Origin: Candidatus Methanomethylophilaceae archaeon
Lineage (GTDB): Archaea > Thermoplasmatota > Thermoplasmata > Methanomassiliicoccales > Methanomethylophilaceae
Assembly: GCA_944320495.1 (NCBI GenBank)
Contig: CALUHR010000001.1
Coordinates: forward strand, 21,697-85,696
Reading direction: 5' to 3'
DNA length: 64,000 bases
Numbering within the stretch: position 1 is the first letter of the stretch; each line of letters begins with the position of its first letter. The notes under the pieces were generated by a model. That model made no database searches, was not told where the DNA came from, and saw only the letters and a list, made by a program, of their open reading frames with translations. The translations under genes and the position numbers were made by a program. This document shows, piece by piece, positions 1 to 46,379 of this stretch.

Positions 1-531
1 AAGCCCTCCGCCGACGGCTACCACGCGGAGATAGCGGCGAAGCTGGCGCCGCTTATGGAGCCCAACATGCCGCTGGTGCTCCTCGGCCCCGGGTTCGAGA
101 AGGAGACCCTCTCGGAGGACCTGAAGAAGGCGGATCCGTCCGCGTTCGGCAGGATGTACGTCTACCACACCGGTCAGTGCGGGATGGCGGGGATCAACGA
201 GCTCCTCAAGGGGGGCATGGGCGCCGACGTCCTCAGGGACTCCGCGGTCGGAACGGAGATCGAGGCCGTGGAGAGGCTGATGGCCGAGATATCCAAACCC
301 AACGGCCTGGGGACCTACGGGACCCAGGAGGTGATGGACGCCGCCATGGCCGGAGCGGTCGACACGCTGCTGGTGCTCGACTCCAAGGTCCGCGAGCAGG
401 ACATGGACGACGTGGTCCGCGCCGTGGAGTCCCAGAAGGGCAGCGTCATCGTGGTCTCGGGGCAGCACGACGGCGGTCGCGCCCTCGCATCCCTGGGGGG
501 CATGGGAGCCATCCTCAGGTACCGTCTCCGA
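1..531 (+). CDS. pelA: Pelota/Dom34 mRNA surveillance (ribosome rescue) protein, 5'-truncated; ends at CGA 529-531
   Basis: eRF1 domain 2/3-like motifs (LVLLGPGFEK, GTQEV..A..GAVDTLLVLD, GGMGAILRY). The family C-terminus coincides with in-frame CGA, followed by TATA-like AT-rich sequence. Confidence 0.9.
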
Positions 532-1918: not shown

Positions 1919-2299
1919 ATGACCATCCTGAGGGTAAGCGAACTTATCGAATGCAAGCACATGACGAGCATACTCGCCTGTCTGTACATGCGCGGATCCA
2001 TGGGCAAGAGCGAGATCTACGACACGATCTCCAACAGCCCCAACATGGCACTGAAGCTCCGCATCCTCTCCGATGAGGGGCTGGTGGAGTCGAACCAGGT
2101 GGGGAGGCGCACCGAGTACAGTCTGACCGAGAAGGGGAGCTCCGTCGCGGAGAAGCTCTGCGGGCTGGAGGAGCTCGTCTACGGGAGGGTCGGGGACCTG
2201 AACCACCTGGAGGAGGGGACAATCCATCTGGACGGGGACGTCCCCGACGAGACCCGCGACTGGTTCGAGGACCGCAGGAGGGGCTGTTGTCCCCTGCGA
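1919..2299 (+). CDS. Winged-helix (HxlR/ArsR-like) transcriptional regulator; ends at CGA 2297-2299
   Basis: wHTH pattern (KLRILSDEGLVE...RTEYSLTEKG). CGA directly abuts the TGA of convergent paaK (2300-2302); otherwise the ORF runs 960 nt antisense into paaK. Confidence 0.8.
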
Positions 2300-3601
2300 T
2301 CACTCGTAGCTCCTGTTGTCGGTGACGTGGTTCGCCTTGCCCTCGAACCTCTCCAGGGTCCCGGGCAGCTCGAGCCTGACGTCCGCCTTGATGTTGAGGA
2401 CGCTCTTCAGACGGGCCGAGAGGGTCTTGGACATCTCGGCCAGCTTGTTCATGTCCTCGGTGAGGTACTCCTCGTTGAGCTCGACCCTGACGGTCATGGC
2501 GTCCATGTAGTTGGCGTTCTCCAGGGTGATGTGGTAGAACGGGGAGAGGAACGGCAGCTCGCCGATGACGCTCTCGATCTGGGACGGGAACACGTTGACC
2601 CCGCGGACCACGAGCATGTCGTCGGTCCTTCCCGAGATCCTCGAGAGACGAGGGTGGGTCCTGCCGCAGGCGCACTTCTCCCAGGTGATCGAGGAGATGT
2701 CCCCCATTCTGTAACGGATCAGGGGGAACGCCTCCTTCTGGAGCATGGTGACGACGATCTGTCCCTTCTCGCCCTCGGCGCAGGGCTCGTCGTTCTCGTC
2801 GAGGATCTCGACGTAGGCCAGGTCGGCCCAGACGTGGATGCCCTGCTGCTCGGAGCATTCGAGGAACATGGGTCCGGACATCTCGCTGGCCCCGTAGCAG
2901 TTGTGGACGCGGACGCCGGTCCTGTCCTGGAGCTTCCTCCTCATGCTCTCGGACCAGGGCTCGCCGCCGGCGATGGCCAGCTTGACCTTGGTGTCCCTGC
3001 GGATGTCGACGCCGATCTTGTCGCAGACGTCGGCGATGTGGAACATGTAGGAGGGCGTCCCGGCCCAGGCGGTCACGGGGAGGTCCTGCATGAGCTGGAT
3101 CTGCCTCTCGGTGTTCCCGGTGCTTATGGGCAGGACGGTGGCGCCGATCCTCTCCGCACCGTAGTGGACCCCGAGCCCTCCGGTGAAGAGGCCGTATCCG
3201 TGGAAGTTCTGGAGCATGTCCTTCTTGGTCATGCCGAAGGAGGTCATGCCCCTGGCTAGGGACTCGGTCCAGTTGTCCAGGTCCTTCTGTGTGTATCCGA
3301 CGACGGTCGGTCTGCCGGTGGTGCCAGACGAGACGTGGATCCTGGTGATGTCGTCGTAGGGGACGGTGAACAGCTTGTCCGGGTAGTTGTCCCTCAGGTC
3401 GGACTTGCGCATGAACGGGACCTTGCGGAAGGCCTCGAAGCTGTCGATGTCCTCGGGGAGTACGCCGGCCTCGCGCATCCTGTCGTGGAAGAACGGGGAC
3501 TTGTCATACATCTCGCGCACCTTGGCCTTGAGCAGGCTGAGCTGGAGCTTCTCCAGTTCCTCGCGCGGCATAGTCTCGATCCTCTCGTTCCAGAACGCCA
3601 T
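2300..3601 (-). CDS. paaK: Phenylacetate-CoA ligase (copy 1)
   Basis: SSGTTGRPT AMP-binding loop, YGLFTGGLG, YGASE, GRTDDML..RGVNVFPSQIE. Confidence 0.92.
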   Translation of the reverse strand: MAFWNERIETMPREELEKLQLSLLKAKVREMYDKSPFFHDRMREAGVLPEDIDSFEAFRKVPFMRKSDLRDNYPDKLFTVPYDDITRIHVSSGTTGRPTVVGYTQKDLDNWTESLARGMTSFGMTKKDMLQNFHGYGLFTGGLGVHYGAERIGATVLPISTGNTERQIQLMQDLPVTAWAGTPSYMFHIADVCDKIGVDIRRDTKVKLAIAGGEPWSESMRRKLQDRTGVRVHNCYGASEMSGPMFLECSEQQGIHVWADLAYVEILDENDEPCAEGEKGQIVVTMLQKEAFPLIRYRMGDISSITWEKCACGRTHPRLSRISGRTDDMLVVRGVNVFPSQIESVIGELPFLSPFYHITLENANYMDAMTVRVELNEEYLTEDMNKLAEMSKTLSARLKSVLNIKADVRLELPGTLERFEGKANHVTDNRSYE

Positions 3602-7112: not shown

Positions 7113-7469
7113 ATGAAGTGCCCCCGTTGTGGTCACGAGAATCCGGATGAGGTCCTCTTCTGCGAGGAGTGCGACTGGAGGGTCGACGTCCCTTACATAC
7201 CGGAGAAGAAGCGCAATCCAGTGCATTTCGCAGGCGCGACGATCGTCCTGGGACTCATCGCCGCGGTGTGCGCGTTCATGAGCGGAACCGAGCTCGTGGC
7301 ACTGGCCGTCGGAGCCATCGCCCTCATCCTGGGAGGATACTCCATGGGCGTCGCCAGACTAGTCGAGACCGACAAGACCCAGCTGTGCCTCGCCATCTCA
7401 GGTGTCGGTATGATCCTCGGGGTCCTCGGATTCCTCATCGGCTTCGCGTCCTTCGTGGGAGCGATGTGA
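7113..7469 (+). CDS. Zinc-ribbon plus three-TM membrane protein
   Basis: MKCPRCG..N...FCEEC followed by hydrophobic helices. ATG about 24 nt after the TATA-like element. Confidence 0.8.
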   Translation: MKCPRCGHENPDEVLFCEECDWRVDVPYIPEKKRNPVHFAGATIVLGLIAAVCAFMSGTELVALAVGAIALILGGYSMGVARLVETDKTQLCLAISGVGMILGVLGFLIGFASFVGAM

Positions 7470-7990
7470 TGGCAGTCTACCGCGGGAAGTACATACTCGA
7501 GGGTCTCGGAAGCATAAGCCCCGAGATGGAGCACAACCTCGACATCGCCTACGACATCTGCATGTCCTACAAGGGGGACTTCCCCTGCGAGATGTGCGGG
7601 AGGTGCTGCCACCAGCCCCACATAGTCGTGAGGCCGGAGGAGATCGACCGCGTCTCCACGGCCGCGGGCATCCCCCTTCCCGTCTTCATGACCGAGTACC
7701 TGGTACGCATGCCGGACGGAAGGTTCCTGTTCAGGAAGACCGATCCGTGCGCGTTCCTAGGGAAGGACAACAGGTGCACCATCTGGAAGGACCGTCCTCA
7801 GATCTGCGACGACTTCCCCTACGCGGTCTCGATGTTCATGAGCCGCGTGTATCTCGCGCTCACGAATCCTGACGCGGACATCATGTCCCTCATATCCTAC
7901 ATGGATGACGAGTGGCCGTGCACTCGCGTCATCAAGGCGGACATAGCCTCCAAGATAGAGGCGGCCCGCAAGGACGTCGTCGTCCAGCGA
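7469..7990 (+). CDS. YkgJ-family CxxCxxCC (Zn/Fe-chelating) protein; ends at CGA 7988-7990
   Basis: CEMCGRCC, CAFL...CTIW.DRPQIC..FP. TGATG overlap with the upstream gene. Confidence 0.82.
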
Positions 7991-10075: not shown

Positions 10076-10522
10076 GCACAGGCCCAGTTGTACCGTGAGG
10101 CTACCTCCTGTGGTGACCGGGACCGTCAGTCCCGCCGAGATGTCCGGTGTTCCGTAACCGTCCCCGATGCTCGTCCCCAGGACGTCACCGGATGGTGCCG
10201 AGAACGACAGATCCAGCAGATACGGTCTCCCCTTGCAGAAAGCATCCAGAGACTCCTCGAGATATTCCAGCGCCTCGCCCTTTCCCGTGACCAGGGACAG
10301 AGCCGCCATGTCGGACAGGCGGACCAGCGTGTCGTCCCCCTCCGACATGTCCGACATGCGGACCTTGGAGGACATCACGTCCTCCAGGAACCCGTAGGCG
10401 TCCCTGTCGTCATCCGCACCGGTGTCCGCGACCTGGGTGACCACGGAGGCCGCGATCATTATGACGAAGATGAACAGCATGGCGTCGACCATGGCGACGA
10501 ATCCGCGGTCGCTCGTGCGCAC
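10070..10522 (-). CDS. Pilin-like protein with class III signal-type N-terminus; GTG start, ends at CGA 10070-10072
   Basis: MRTSDRG|FVAMVDAMLFIFVIMIAASVV. CGA lies immediately past the convergent apgM TGA. Confidence 0.65.
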
Positions 10523-13593: not shown

Positions 13594-15347
13594 AACTGCG
13601 CCTGCCGCCGTTCGCGACCATCATCCGCCCGTCGCCGGAGGACGATTTCGTCATCCCAGGGACCAAGGGCGGGGGACAAAACCCGCCCGGGAGACCTCCG
13701 TCCGCGCTCCAGAGGGCAGGGGGCAGCCCCTCGGCGTTCTCCGAGGCCTTCACGGTGCTCATGGGGGAGAACGTTCGCACCAAACCGTCATACACGGACT
13801 GCTGGATAGCATCGGTCCCCGAGCTCCGCCCGATCGCGTCGTACATGACAGACATGGGCTCCGTCCTCATCGGGCTGTCAGAGGGCGGTGAGACCGTGTA
13901 CTCCGTCACACCGAGGGAGTACGCGTACCCCGATCCGCTAAACGCGGTGGTGATGGACGTCATCGACGGGATCCGCGACGTGTACAGGGACGGCGGTGGG
14001 AGTCTGGACCGCGACACGGTCATGGGCATGACCCGCTCGGTCCTGACAGATAGGTGGGACGACCTGGAGAGGGCGTGCGGGGGCGGGGACGTGGAGTCGG
14101 TCATGAGGGACGTCTGCGCCATTGCGTACCGCCATTCCGTCGGCGCGGGGATATTCGAGGTCCTGCTGGCCGACCGCCACATCGAGGACATCTATGTGGA
14201 CGCACCTTGCAGCATGAACCGCATCCACGTCACGGTGAACGGGATCAACGGTCTGAACTCCCACATCAGATGCTCCACCAATCTGATGGCGGAGGAGCGC
14301 GAGGTATCCAACCTCCTGAACATCCTGAAGAGGGACAGTGGCCTTCGCTTCTGCAGGTCCTGCCCCGTCCTTGAGACGGATATGCGCGGGTTCGACGCGA
14401 GGGCGACCGTGGTGGGCTACCCGCTCAGCCCCAGGGGGAACGCGATTGCCATCAGGAAGCACTCCGTACGCCCGTGGACCCTTTCCCGTTTGATCGCCAA
14501 CGGCACCGTCAGCCCGAGGGCAGCCGGCATCCTCTCGTTCATAGTCAACAGCAGGGCGACCGTCCTGATATGCGGGGCGCGCGGGGCAGGCAAGAGCGCC
14601 CTCCTCAGCGCCCTGATGTTCGAGTTCCCGCTGAGCCAGAGGATACTCACCATCGAGGACACCCTGGAGCTGCCTGGAGACCACATGAGGAGGATGGGCT
14701 ACAAGGTGCAGACCATGCTGGTGGACGACCGCATCCAGGGGTCCGTCTCATCCCGCTCCGACGAGGCGTTGCGCGTGTCCCTGAGGCTGGGGGAGTCGGC
14801 GATAGTCATGGGGGAGGTCCGCGGGGAGGAGGCCAGGACGCTCTATCAGAGCATGCGCGCGGGCCGCGCCGGGAGCGCGATCATGGGCACGGTGCACGGC
14901 GACTCCGCCGCATCCGTCTACCAGAGGATGGTCTTCGACATGGGCATCCCACCCGAGGCGTTCGGCGCCACGGACATACTGGTGACCCTCGGGACGGTGA
15001 GGGACAGGCGCACGGGGAACCTCATCCGCAGGGTTAACGAGCTGGTGGCCACCGGTACATCCCCGGGAGAATTCCTGGATGTCTCAGGGGTGGACGGGCT
15101 TCTCGCATCGCCGTTCGCAGAGAGGGCCCTGTCCTCCCTTCAATTGGGCCGCAGGGACGTCGTGAAGGAGATCAGGGCGAGGTCGATGATGCGCTCGTAT
15201 CTGGCGTCCCTCGGCACCGAGGACGAGGGGTTCCTGGGACCGGAATGGGTCCTGGCGTCGAACGAGATCCTCGCCGGAATGCCCCAGTCGGCTTCCGCGG
15301 AGGAAGCCCTGGCCGTGCTGAAGGGGAGGACCGGTAGGGATGACCGA
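13590..15347 (+). CDS. Type II/IV secretion (VirB11/TadA-like) ATPase; ends at CGA 15345-15347
   Basis: Walker A GARGAGKS, TIEDTLEL, MGEVRG, GTVHGD. CGA 3 nt after the ATG codon of the next gene. Confidence 0.9.
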
Positions 15348-44371: not shown

Positions 44372-45739
44372 ATGAGCAACGTCTGTCCCTTGGACTACAG
44401 GTACGGTCGCGAGGACATGAAGAATGTCTTCAGCGAGGACAGCCGCATACGCAACGAGATGCTCGTCGAGGCCGCCCTCGCCAGGGCGCACGCCTCTCTC
44501 GGCACCATCCCGCAGTCTGCGGCCGACGAGATCACCCGCGCTGCGACGCTGGACGTCGTCAGCGTCGACAGGATAAAGCAGATCGAGTCGGAGACCCGCC
44601 ACGACCTCATGGCCATGGTCAAGGCCGTGACCGAGAAGTGCGAGGGGGATGCCGGCAAGTACGTCCATCTCGGAGCAACATCAAACGACATCGTGGACAC
44701 AGCCACCGCCCTCCAGCTCAAGGAGGCCATGGGCATCGTCCTCGAGGACGTCGACAACCTGATCATGACGTTCGCCGCCCTGGCCAAGAGGGAGAGGGAC
44801 ACCCTCGAGATCGGCAGGACGCACGCGCAGTTCGCCATCCCGATCACCTACGGGTTCAAGGTCGCCGGATACATCGCGGAGATGATCAGGCACAGGGAGA
44901 GGATCATAGAGGCCATGCCCAGGGTGTGCGCCGGCAAGATGGCCGGTGCCGTCGGTACTGGAGCGGCCCTCGGAGCCAACTTCTTCGAGGTCCAGCGCAG
45001 GGTGATGTCCGATCTCGGGCTCACCTACGAGCCCGCGGCTACGCAGGTCGTCGGACGCGACAGGTACACCGAGGCCATATGCCTCATGGCGAACATCGCC
45101 GCATCCCTCGAGAGGTACTGCACCGAGGTCAGGAACCTCCAGAGGTCCGAGGTCGCCGAGGCGTCCGAGTACTTCGACGTGTCCAAGCAGGTGGGCAGCT
45201 CCACGATGGCTCAGAAGAGGAATCCGATGAACTCCGAGAACGTCTGCGGTCTGGCCCGCGTCATCCGCGGATTCGTCACGCCCGCCTTCGAGAGCCAGAT
45301 TCTCTGGCACGAGAGGGATCTGTGCAACTCCTCCACCGAGAGATTCACCCTGCCCCATGTGTTCGTCCTCATCGACGAGATTCTCAAGAAGACCGCCTGG
45401 ATCTACTCCGGGCTGGAGATCCATCGCGACAGGATGCTCGAGAACATCGAGTCCTCCCGCGGACTGGTCATGGCCGAGCCCCTCATGATGAAGCTCACCG
45501 AGAAGGGCATCGGCAGGCAGGACGCGCACGAGATCATCCGCTCATCCGCCATGGTCGCCGAGGACACCGGCAGGCACCTGAGGGATGTCCTGATGGAGAG
45601 GGAGGACCTCAAGGGTGTCCTCACCCCGGAGGAGATCGTCGCCACCATGGATGCCTCCAACTACGTTGGCGGAGCCAGGGAGATCGTCGACAAGATGGTC
45701 GCCGCCGCCGAGGACGTCGTTGGAAGGAAGGTCGAGCGA
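44372..45739 (+). CDS. purB: Adenylosuccinate lyase; ends at CGA 45737-45739
   Basis: PLDYRYG, TRHD, HLGATSND, GRTH, GSSTMAQKRNP signature. CGATG overlap with the next start. Confidence 0.95.
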
Positions 45740-45903
45740 TGGACAGGAAGCATCAGGGGCTCGTCCTCGGGGCGATCGTCGGAGCCGCGCTCTGCGCCTT
45801 CATGTACTTCGAGTCCCACAGCTGGGTGAGTCTCATACTGATCCCGATCGGCGCGCTCATGGGAGCAGCGCCCCAGTACCTCAGACCCAAGGACGAGGAC
45901 TGA
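45739..45903 (+). CDS. Small two-TM membrane protein (54 aa)
   Basis: MDRKHQGLVLGAIVGAALCAFMYF...LIPIGALMG...KDED. ATG shares its A with the purB CGA. Confidence 0.75.
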   Translation: MDRKHQGLVLGAIVGAALCAFMYFESHSWVSLILIPIGALMGAAPQYLRPKDED

Positions 45904-45915
45904 AAAAACGAAGAT

Positions 45916-45938
45916 GGGTCGGGGTTCCCTCCCGACCC
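45916..45938. terminator. Hairpin between convergent genes
   Basis: GGGTCGGG-(7 nt)-CCCGACCC. Confidence 0.55.
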
Positions 45939-45953
45939 TGTTTATCTCTATTA

Positions 45954-46379
45954 TCAGAGGACCTTCTTGCCGGCTTTCGGTCCGGGGGCGACGTTGTACA
46001 CGTCCTCGATGCACATCTTGACGAGGTGCTTGGCAGGGGCGGTCTCCATCCTGGAATGGGCGATGGTGACGGCCTTCTCGTAGTCGGAGCCGGAGTCCAA
46101 GATCTCGAGGGATCCCTTGACCTGCCAGCATCCGCCCTTGTACTCGGGGGACCAGAGGAAGAAGGACGCCTTGGGGTTCTCCTTCATGTTGGCGATGGTC
46201 TTGTCGAAGAAGTTGTCGATAATCCAGATCTTCCCGTCCTCGCCGGGGAAGAGCATCCCGACGGGTACGACGTTGGGGACGCCGTCCTTGCTGGCCGTGG
46301 CGAGGGAGAAGATGCGCATGGCCTTCATACACTCCTTCATCTCGGGGGTCAGCTCCTTGTCGCAGTTGTTGCACGACAT
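45954..46379 (-). CDS. Pyridoxamine 5'-phosphate oxidase-like FMN-binding protein
   Basis: LATASKDGVPNVVP, DNFFDKTIANMKENP, QVKG. Confidence 0.88.
   Translation of the reverse strand: MSCNNCDKELTPEMKECMKAMRIFSLATASKDGVPNVVPVGMLFPGEDGKIWIIDNFFDKTIANMKENPKASFFLWSPEYKGGCWQVKGSLEILDSGSDYEKAVTIAHSRMETAPAKHLVKMCIEDVYNVAPGPKAGKKVL

Follow-up and report, generated by a model that had tools for sequence, protein, structure and literature searches.

An overlapping CGATG at the end of purB points to CGA as a probable context-dependent stop codon in the archaeal genus Candidatus Methanoprimaticola

Results

Genes at the purB junction

The window that we analysed, a stretch of 64,000 nucleotides, carries purB, the gene for adenylosuccinate lyase, and a gene for a small membrane protein that begins within the last codon of the purB frame (Table 1). 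That frame ends AAG GTC GAG CGA, and a reading of the letters alone (hereafter the sequence-only reading) had proposed that CGA and the next ATG overlap here by one nucleotide and that the ATG opens a reading frame (ORF) for a 54-residue protein with two helices; we find the CGATG and the ORF just where they had been placed, and the ORF ends at a TGA. Both ORFs at this junction are real, conserved genes, PurB on the strength of its Pfam matches and the small ORF on that of its presence in 14 congeners. Counted from the ATG, PurB matches Lyase_1 over residues 20-300 and ADSL_C over residues 364-441, and its domains thus stop at residue 441 of a protein that is complete at 455. Under the standard code the purB frame would continue past CGA for another 30 codons. 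This tail is rich in arginine and serine, overlaps the small ORF out of frame and has no counterpart among the orthologues parsed (13 congeners; 58 species of the family), and we judge it not to be translated.

The sequence-only reading had made its proposal depend on conservation of the small ORF. The 14 congeners keep it at 54-70 residues, with two hydrophobic helices, and its codon usage follows the C- and G-ending codons preferred by the genome. Between the analysed genome (G000) and an independent assembly that is about 95% identical to it in DNA (G018), the small ORF differs by four substitutions, and all four are synonymous in the small-ORF frame. A Pfam search with the 54-residue protein returned no family, and an Atlas search returned only weak matches with scores of 0.81, which is the level of chance. 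We note that in G010 (locus L005) the homologue has 70 residues and itself ends at CGA (...RRKRR-CGA). A candidate Shine-Dalgarno-like motif precedes the ATG and would also permit independent initiation at the small ORF. Beyond the small ORF, and before a convergent gene on the minus strand (45954-46379), lies an inverted repeat that looks terminator-like.

Table 1. Features of the purB junction and of the other loci discussed in the text. Positions are those of the window unless a contig of the analysed genome (G000) is given.
Feature	Position	Strand	Remarks
Pelota-type gene	253-531	+	eRF1_3 domain 253-528; end at CGA 529-531
purB (adenylosuccinate lyase), coding sequence	44372-45736	+	455 codons, ends ...GRKVE
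GAAGGT, candidate Shine-Dalgarno-like motif	45727-45732	+	6 nt upstream of ATG, within conserved purB coding sequence
CGA, putative terminator of purB	45737-45739	+	aligned to TGA/TAA in relatives
CGATG, stop-start overlap of 1 nt	45737-45741	+	A shared by CGA and the next ATG
Small membrane protein gene	45739-45903	+	54 aa, two hydrophobic helices; TGA 45901-45903
Phantom purB extension, standard code	45740-45829	+	30 codons; stop is TGA 45827-45829
Inverted repeat GGGTCGGG...CCCGACCC	45916-45938		followed by T-rich run
tRNA-Arg(UCG)	G000:C13:413317-413390 (locus L040)	+	A31.A39 mismatch, loop UU-UCG-GC
aRF1, sole copy	G000:C2:85936-87165 (locus L039:937-2166)	-	in-frame CGA at conserved Arg78
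GmhA-like (SIS) and GmhB-like (HAD phosphatase), one frame	G000:C13:193618-194718 (locus L041)	-	single CGA at the joint
Flavodoxin-like gene	G000:C8:55277-55840	+	in-frame CGA, then C

The homologous site in relatives

The codon that follows ...KVE is TGA in 12 of 13 congeners and TAA in the other, mostly in the form TGATG and otherwise as TGAnATG; TGATG stands at this site in at least eight congeners and also in L158. Among the 58 species of the family in which the site could be parsed, TGA occupies it in 55, TAA in two and CGA in one, G018, and none of these 58 has a PurB that is longer than ...KVE. The sequence-only reading had pointed to TGATG at homologous purB 3' ends as a check and to orthologues some 30 residues longer as a refutation; TGATG is present in many relatives, and TGA or TAA is the very next codon, at the equal position, in 57 of the 58 species. 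CGATG itself is found only in G000 and G018 among the congeners compared. The nearest relative with TGA reads TGATGGAC where the analysed genome reads CGATGGAC (GAGTGATGGAC against GAGCGATGGAC), and it differs from the analysed genome here by the single T>C. Judged from these comparisons, the CGATG is a genuine stop-start overlap: translation of purB would end at CGA, the overlapping ATG would start the conserved membrane protein, and the motif would have derived from an ancestral TGATG by one T>C transition.

Two simpler explanations bear directly on this site. A frameshift or an assembly error might conceal either a fusion of PurB to the membrane peptide or a normal TGA, and the genome is indeed a metagenome-assembled draft in 14 contigs. 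However, the identical CGATG appears in the independent assembly G018, PurB is complete without the peptide, and the pattern described below is frame-specific and recurs in G013, G115 and G008; we give such an error scarcely any chance. Alternatively, the T>C change may have been a one-off loss of the purB TGA, with CGA read as arginine and a 30-residue extension of PurB over the small gene tolerated. The restriction of CGA at this site to G000 and its sister G018 would be in keeping with such an event, as would the existence of a gene for the cognate tRNA-Arg(UCG) and the presence in public databases of a PurB of 485 residues; the public entry is this read-through form, and the 455-residue form is absent from the records. 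The behaviour of CGA in the rest of the genome bears on this choice.

CGA at gene ends across the genome

We applied genome-wide a codon model built from 83 true-frame ortholog pairs between G000 and G013 (Candidatus Methanoprimaticola sp. MG2), chosen with a filter on third-position substitution bias; G013 and G018 each have a database record of their own. A first, self-trained ORF set was discarded because wrong-frame ORFs of this GC-rich genome had entered it, raising the apparent frequency of interior CGA to about 3 per 1000 and giving rise to spurious Arg-Gly alignments. With the codon model, the coding score at the CGA of purB is +0.77 upstream and -1.26 downstream. We then scored what lies past any given codon that follows 40 stop-free, high-coding codons, counting a downstream score below 0.1 as non-coding. 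The median downstream score was -0.87 for CGA (n = 323, 97% non-coding), -0.92 for TGA (n = 1034, 94%) and -0.99 for TAA (n = 46, 89%), as against +0.3 to +0.5 for the rare sense codons CGG, CGT, AGA and CAA that served as controls, and the loss of coding signal past CGA thus matches that past TGA. Within aligned true-frame genes of G000 only 3 of 24,195 codons are CGA; off frame, CGA trinucleotides are abundant, at about 35 per 1000 codons. A stricter census of gene ends counted TGA 947 times, CGA 284 times, TAG 88 times and TAA 36 times (1355 ends in total, about 21% of them CGA).

Comparison with relatives gives a similar picture. Where terminal CGAs of G000 could be followed into G013, G115 and G008, they correspond to TGA eight times, to CGA seven times and to another arginine codon not once. 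Between G000 and G018, CGA and TGA are swapped at 7 of 205 homologous ends, about half the rate of third-position substitution, and other stop-codon changes are very rare; one of the swaps yields a second CGATG/TGATG pair (C13:290632). In three cases CGA has changed to CGG or AGA, each time backed up by another stop no more than 1-7 codons away. Substitutions between these two genomes at codon positions 1, 2 and 3 number 40, 31 and 158 in the 150 nt upstream of CGA and 94, 29 and 40 in the tail past it, so that the third-position share falls from 69% to 25%; sequence past TGA behaves alike. In one place two flavoprotein genes lie in the same frame with nothing but CGA between them.

The claim of the sequence-only reading that CGA terminates is thus borne out by three lines of evidence that agree, namely the collapse of coding signal, the loss of third-position bias and the CGA/TGA swaps. 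Because the genome-wide tests agree in this way, we take the purB site to be one of about 284 CGA-ended genes. At the level of sequence, these results show that purB and about a fifth of the genes have CGA as their end mark, and that CGA and TGA are interchangeable in evolution. They also weigh heavily against an isolated stop loss at purB: some 284 ends share the pattern, exchange with TGA goes on where other stop-codon changes hardly occur, substitutions past CGA abandon the upstream frame with no in-frame selection on the tails, and CGA is nearly absent inside genes. The extension itself has a junk-like composition, and where it overlaps the small ORF it is the frame of the latter that is conserved. 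We leave stop loss a very slim chance.

It could also be asked whether the CGAs are changed before they reach the ribosome, since deamination of C to U would turn CGA into UGA in the mRNA and present the release factor with an ordinary stop. In the mitochondria of plants, stop codons are known to arise by editing of CGA to UGA, and DNA data cannot tell C from an edited U. Nevertheless, an editing enzyme would be blind to the reading frame, and with off-frame CGA so abundant, editing many of these sites would alter coding; a conserved in-frame CGA for an essential arginine in the release-factor gene and the retained tRNA(UCG), both described below, fit competition on the ribosome better. We know of no C-to-U editing of mRNA in archaea, and we regard this explanation as very improbable.

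Some further gene ends deserve mention. The letters CGATCA at window positions 2297-2302 hold, without a gap, the ends of two convergent genes, a plus-strand CGA (2297-2299) and a minus-strand TGA (2302-2300), and similar convergent ends with CGA are found at 7982(-)/7988(+) and 60546(+)/60558(-). For the 88 candidate TAG ends of G000, coding signal continued past TAG in 16% of cases in the first test, figures that would fit the dual use of TAG for stop and pyrrolysine in the order Methanomassiliicoccales; Aragorn, searching G000 for intron-less genes, found no tRNA-Pyl, tRNA-Tyr or tRNA-Trp.

Junction geometry and the following base

TG directly follows 68 of 284 terminal CGAs and 76 of 947 terminal TGAs (Fisher p = 8e-12), with a background of 11.5% for all genomic CGA trinucleotides. 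When only junctions with a coding downstream ATG frame are counted, CGATG occurs at 35 of 284 CGA ends and TGATG at 16 of 947 TGA ends (odds ratio 8, p = 2e-12), that is, an xGATG overlap at 12% of the former and 2% of the latter. CGATG is the 1-nt overlap available to a CGA stop and an ATG start. About 25% of TGA ends overlap the next gene by at least 4 nt (start calling being approximate), mostly as ATGA, the commonest overlap of TGA-ended genes; because this form cannot exist for CGA, the overlaps of CGA-ended genes are shifted to xGATG. The sequence-only reading had called for a genome-wide test of CGATG at gene junctions and had treated coupling geometry as independent evidence for termination. 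The enrichment upholds that view, and the geometry therefore counts as genuine and independent evidence for a CGA stop. The couplings cited in its support are likewise present in the window: TGATG at 7467-7471, a near-coupling at 15340-15347 that reads ATGACCGA, with ...GRDD-CGA as the end of the upstream gene and the ATG as the start of the next, and a GTG/CGA near-coupling at 10513-10522 that reads GTGCGCACGA on the minus strand, with the CGA gene end at 10515. It is possible, given this geometry, that ribosomes re-initiate at the overlapping ATG after CGA.

The base that follows is also biased. T comes after 55% of terminal CGAs and A after 8%, as compared with 30% and 21% after TGA, and in the five CGAs that are flanked by coding sequence both before and after, the next base is C or G. 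Together with the junction geometry, this bias hints at context dependence of the CGA stop.

CGAs read as sense, the release factor and the tRNA

As far as conserved sequence can tell, CGA does not act as a stop at every occurrence: sense reading is required for a few in-frame CGAs, one of which is in the gene for aRF1, the release factor itself. We count about five interior exceptions in G000. In aRF1 the codon encodes Arg78 of the motif ...AA-R-LKTY...; each of the 12 species of the genus that we examined uses CGA here, always as T-CGA-C and amid synonymous sites that vary, and in 18 species of other genera the codon is CGC, CGT, AGG or AGA, with CGA once. An obligate stop at codon 78 would abolish the factor, and CGA must therefore be readable; because it must be sense here, CGA is not a pure stop. 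The in-frame CGA resembles a feedback sensor for termination activity. Two other exceptions are of interest. GmhA-like and GmhB-like domains share one frame and are joined by a single CGA (...ELFGS-CGA-AVFIDRDD...), past which there is no start codon; this may be programmed read-through that yields both short and fused products. A flavodoxin-like gene has CGA within a conserved motif (GKTI-CGA-PFCTNEGSG), which reflects either sense reading or a pseudogene. We think that CGA is probably read as sense at both of these places.

The gene for tRNA-Arg(UCG) is present, which led us to reject its absence as the cause of a CGA stop. BLAST found it in about 30 of 41 genomes of the genus, and G008 and G015 have it in a diverged form. 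Within the genus positions 31 and 39 are always mismatched (C.A, A.A or U.C) and the other four pairs of the stem covary; the branch of G008 and G015 has a C.C stem mismatch and C33 in the loop. In other genera the anticodon arm is canonical. The retained tRNA appears to be under selection, which counts against CGA being purely a stop, and a functional stop might be expected to have no competing cognate tRNA, whereas here one is kept. That this tRNA is retained, with an aberrant anticodon arm, is what makes CGA seem to be a stop that is leaky and dependent on context.

On the side of the release factor, a second, CGA-specialised aRF1 paralogue was looked for and not found, the genome having one aRF1 and one Pelota only. 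The Pelota-type gene ends at CGA, and the standard-code open frame over it runs to 858 aa and is fused to the next gene. We found no genus-specific change in the NIKS and YxCxxxF motifs of aRF1, and NIKS and YRCDS are identical inside and outside the genus. Residues D17, N/S51 and C142 are specific to the genus and have no known role; position 51 (N/S as opposed to D/E) was rejected as diagnostic, since two solved archaeal aRF1s have Q there. G000 alone has S for G in the equivalent of the GTS loop (RSTE for RGTE). The YxCxxxF motif reads Y-R-C in all aRF1s of the family, which is equivalent to L123R of yeast eRF1, a UGA-biased variant with enhanced release at CGA (PMC7379694). By analogy, Y-R-C may predispose the whole family to release at CGA.

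These observations also bear on the possibility that CGA is simply unassigned, or decoded very slowly, and that stalled ribosomes are released by rescue of the Pelota/ABCE1 type or by low-level misreading by aRF1. The aberrant anticodon arm throughout the genus and the lack of a diagnostic motif change in aRF1 would fit, and yeast eRF1/eRF3 is able to release at a poorly decoded CGA (PMC7379694). It is difficult, however, to see a fifth of genes, including a housekeeping gene such as purB, depending on a signal of this sort, or CGA and TGA interchanging at a near-neutral rate if it were so; the conserved context preferences and the CGA in the aRF1 gene suggest instead a tuned system. Moreover, Pelota is not known to have peptide-release activity. 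We consider stalling and rescue improbable.

Spread across the genus and family

The genus is UBA71/Candidatus Methanoprimaticola, of the family Methanomethylophilaceae in the Methanomassiliicoccales. CGA and TGA ends number 21 and 157 in G013, 7 and 74 in G115, and 14 and 291 in G008 (GC 53.6%), where only 2 of 65,999 interior codons are CGA and several of the CGA ends have a canonical stop next to them as a backup. In the sister genus represented by G076, CGA is a rare sense codon (13 cases, 85% of them followed by coding sequence), and G052 is similar; in other sister genera CGA is too rare for a call between sense and stop. This distribution fits codon capture. CGA would have been nearly lost in the family and would have come back, now as a stop, where the genus branched off, its use rising with GC content.

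Discussion

We think it very probable that the CGATG at the end of purB is a genuine overlap and that its best explanation is that this genus has captured CGA for termination, with aRF1 set against a weakened tRNA, the last being a mechanism deduced from sequence. CGA would have been taken up as a termination signal in UBA71/Candidatus Methanoprimaticola after its near-loss from coding sequence, and it would now end about a fifth of genes in the GC-rich species analysed. The single aRF1 would read CGA as it reads UGA, outcompeting a tRNA-Arg(UCG) that is retained but structurally weakened, and the outcome would depend on context, T past CGA being favoured at gene ends and C or G following the CGAs that are read as sense. 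The invariant U-CGA-C in the aRF1 gene could then act as a feedback sensor. From these patterns we infer recognition of CGA by aRF1, context-dependent leakiness and autoregulation of aRF1. The broader statement, that across the genus, an inhabitant of animal guts, CGA is a context-dependent fourth stop codon, with the weak tRNA reading U-CGA-C, aRF1 sensing itself and CGATG replacing TGATG as the preferred 1-nt junction, we regard as likely, if somewhat less secure.

Sense-to-stop reassignment has, to our knowledge, been documented only in organelles, and if our reading is true, a free-living organism would for the first time be seen to have changed its code in this way. Such a genus, with its leaky CGA stop, would also represent a natural intermediate stage in codon capture, in which a rare codon, a decaying tRNA, a release factor and a rising GC content could be followed species by species. 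There would be practical consequences as well. Annotation of these common gut methanogens under the standard code would be wrong for about a fifth of genes, and it would fuse adjacent same-frame genes, as in the long frame over Pelota. The new stop, for its part, would be recognisable by the CGATG junction, a signature that is simple and can be counted. In the literature that we searched we found no published CGA stop in Methanoprimaticola, UBA71 or Methanomethylophilaceae. Two large screens for altered codes, Codetta (PMC8629427) and KACI (bioRxiv 10.64898/2026.04.02.715157), state that they are unable to detect new stop codons. In two archaeal metagenome-assembled genomes (MAGs) from hydrothermal vents, CGA was recently reported to be missing from conserved domains and to be a possible stop, although its meaning was not investigated by the authors (Melnykov 2026, bioRxiv 10.64898/2026.04.02.715157). 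Those genomes differ from the genus studied here in belonging to another lineage and in having a GC content of about 50%, CGG as a tryptophan codon and no tRNA(UCG) found.

The purB junction resembles the TGATG and ATGA coupling overlaps of prokaryotes, in that a stop and an ATG overlap by one nucleotide at a site homologous to the TGATG of congeners and in a form that is enriched; the difference is that the stop there is canonical and here is CGA. As a change of code it is closest to organellar cases, which include AGA/AGG in vertebrate mitochondria, UCA in Scenedesmus and UUA in thraustochytrid mitochondria, with the green-algal cases described in PMC6821328 and PMC6551751. There too a codon with a sense meaning, in many cases a rare one for arginine, vanishes from genes and reappears at their ends as a terminator. 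What sets the present case apart from those organelles is that it concerns a free-living archaeon of the gut, whose genes number about 1,400, and that the codon in question, CGA, is still read as sense at a few sites and retains its cognate tRNA gene. A likeness of another kind is found in yeast, in which eRF1/eRF3 misdecodes CGA in competition with tRNA-Arg and the eRF1 variants F, R and Y at L123 enhance this release (Wada & Ito 2018, PMC7379694). Archaea share this eukaryote type of class-I release factor, and the aRF1s of the family have R at the position equivalent to L123; release at CGA in yeast, however, is a low-level error or rescue seen on reporters, whereas here CGA is the regular end of a fifth of genes. 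Lastly, the aRF1 gene recalls bacterial RF2 (prfB), which also carries an in-frame copy of a codon, UGA, at which its own product terminates. In prfB that codon is passed by a +1 frameshift, and in aRF1 we propose that it is passed through read-through by the tRNA.
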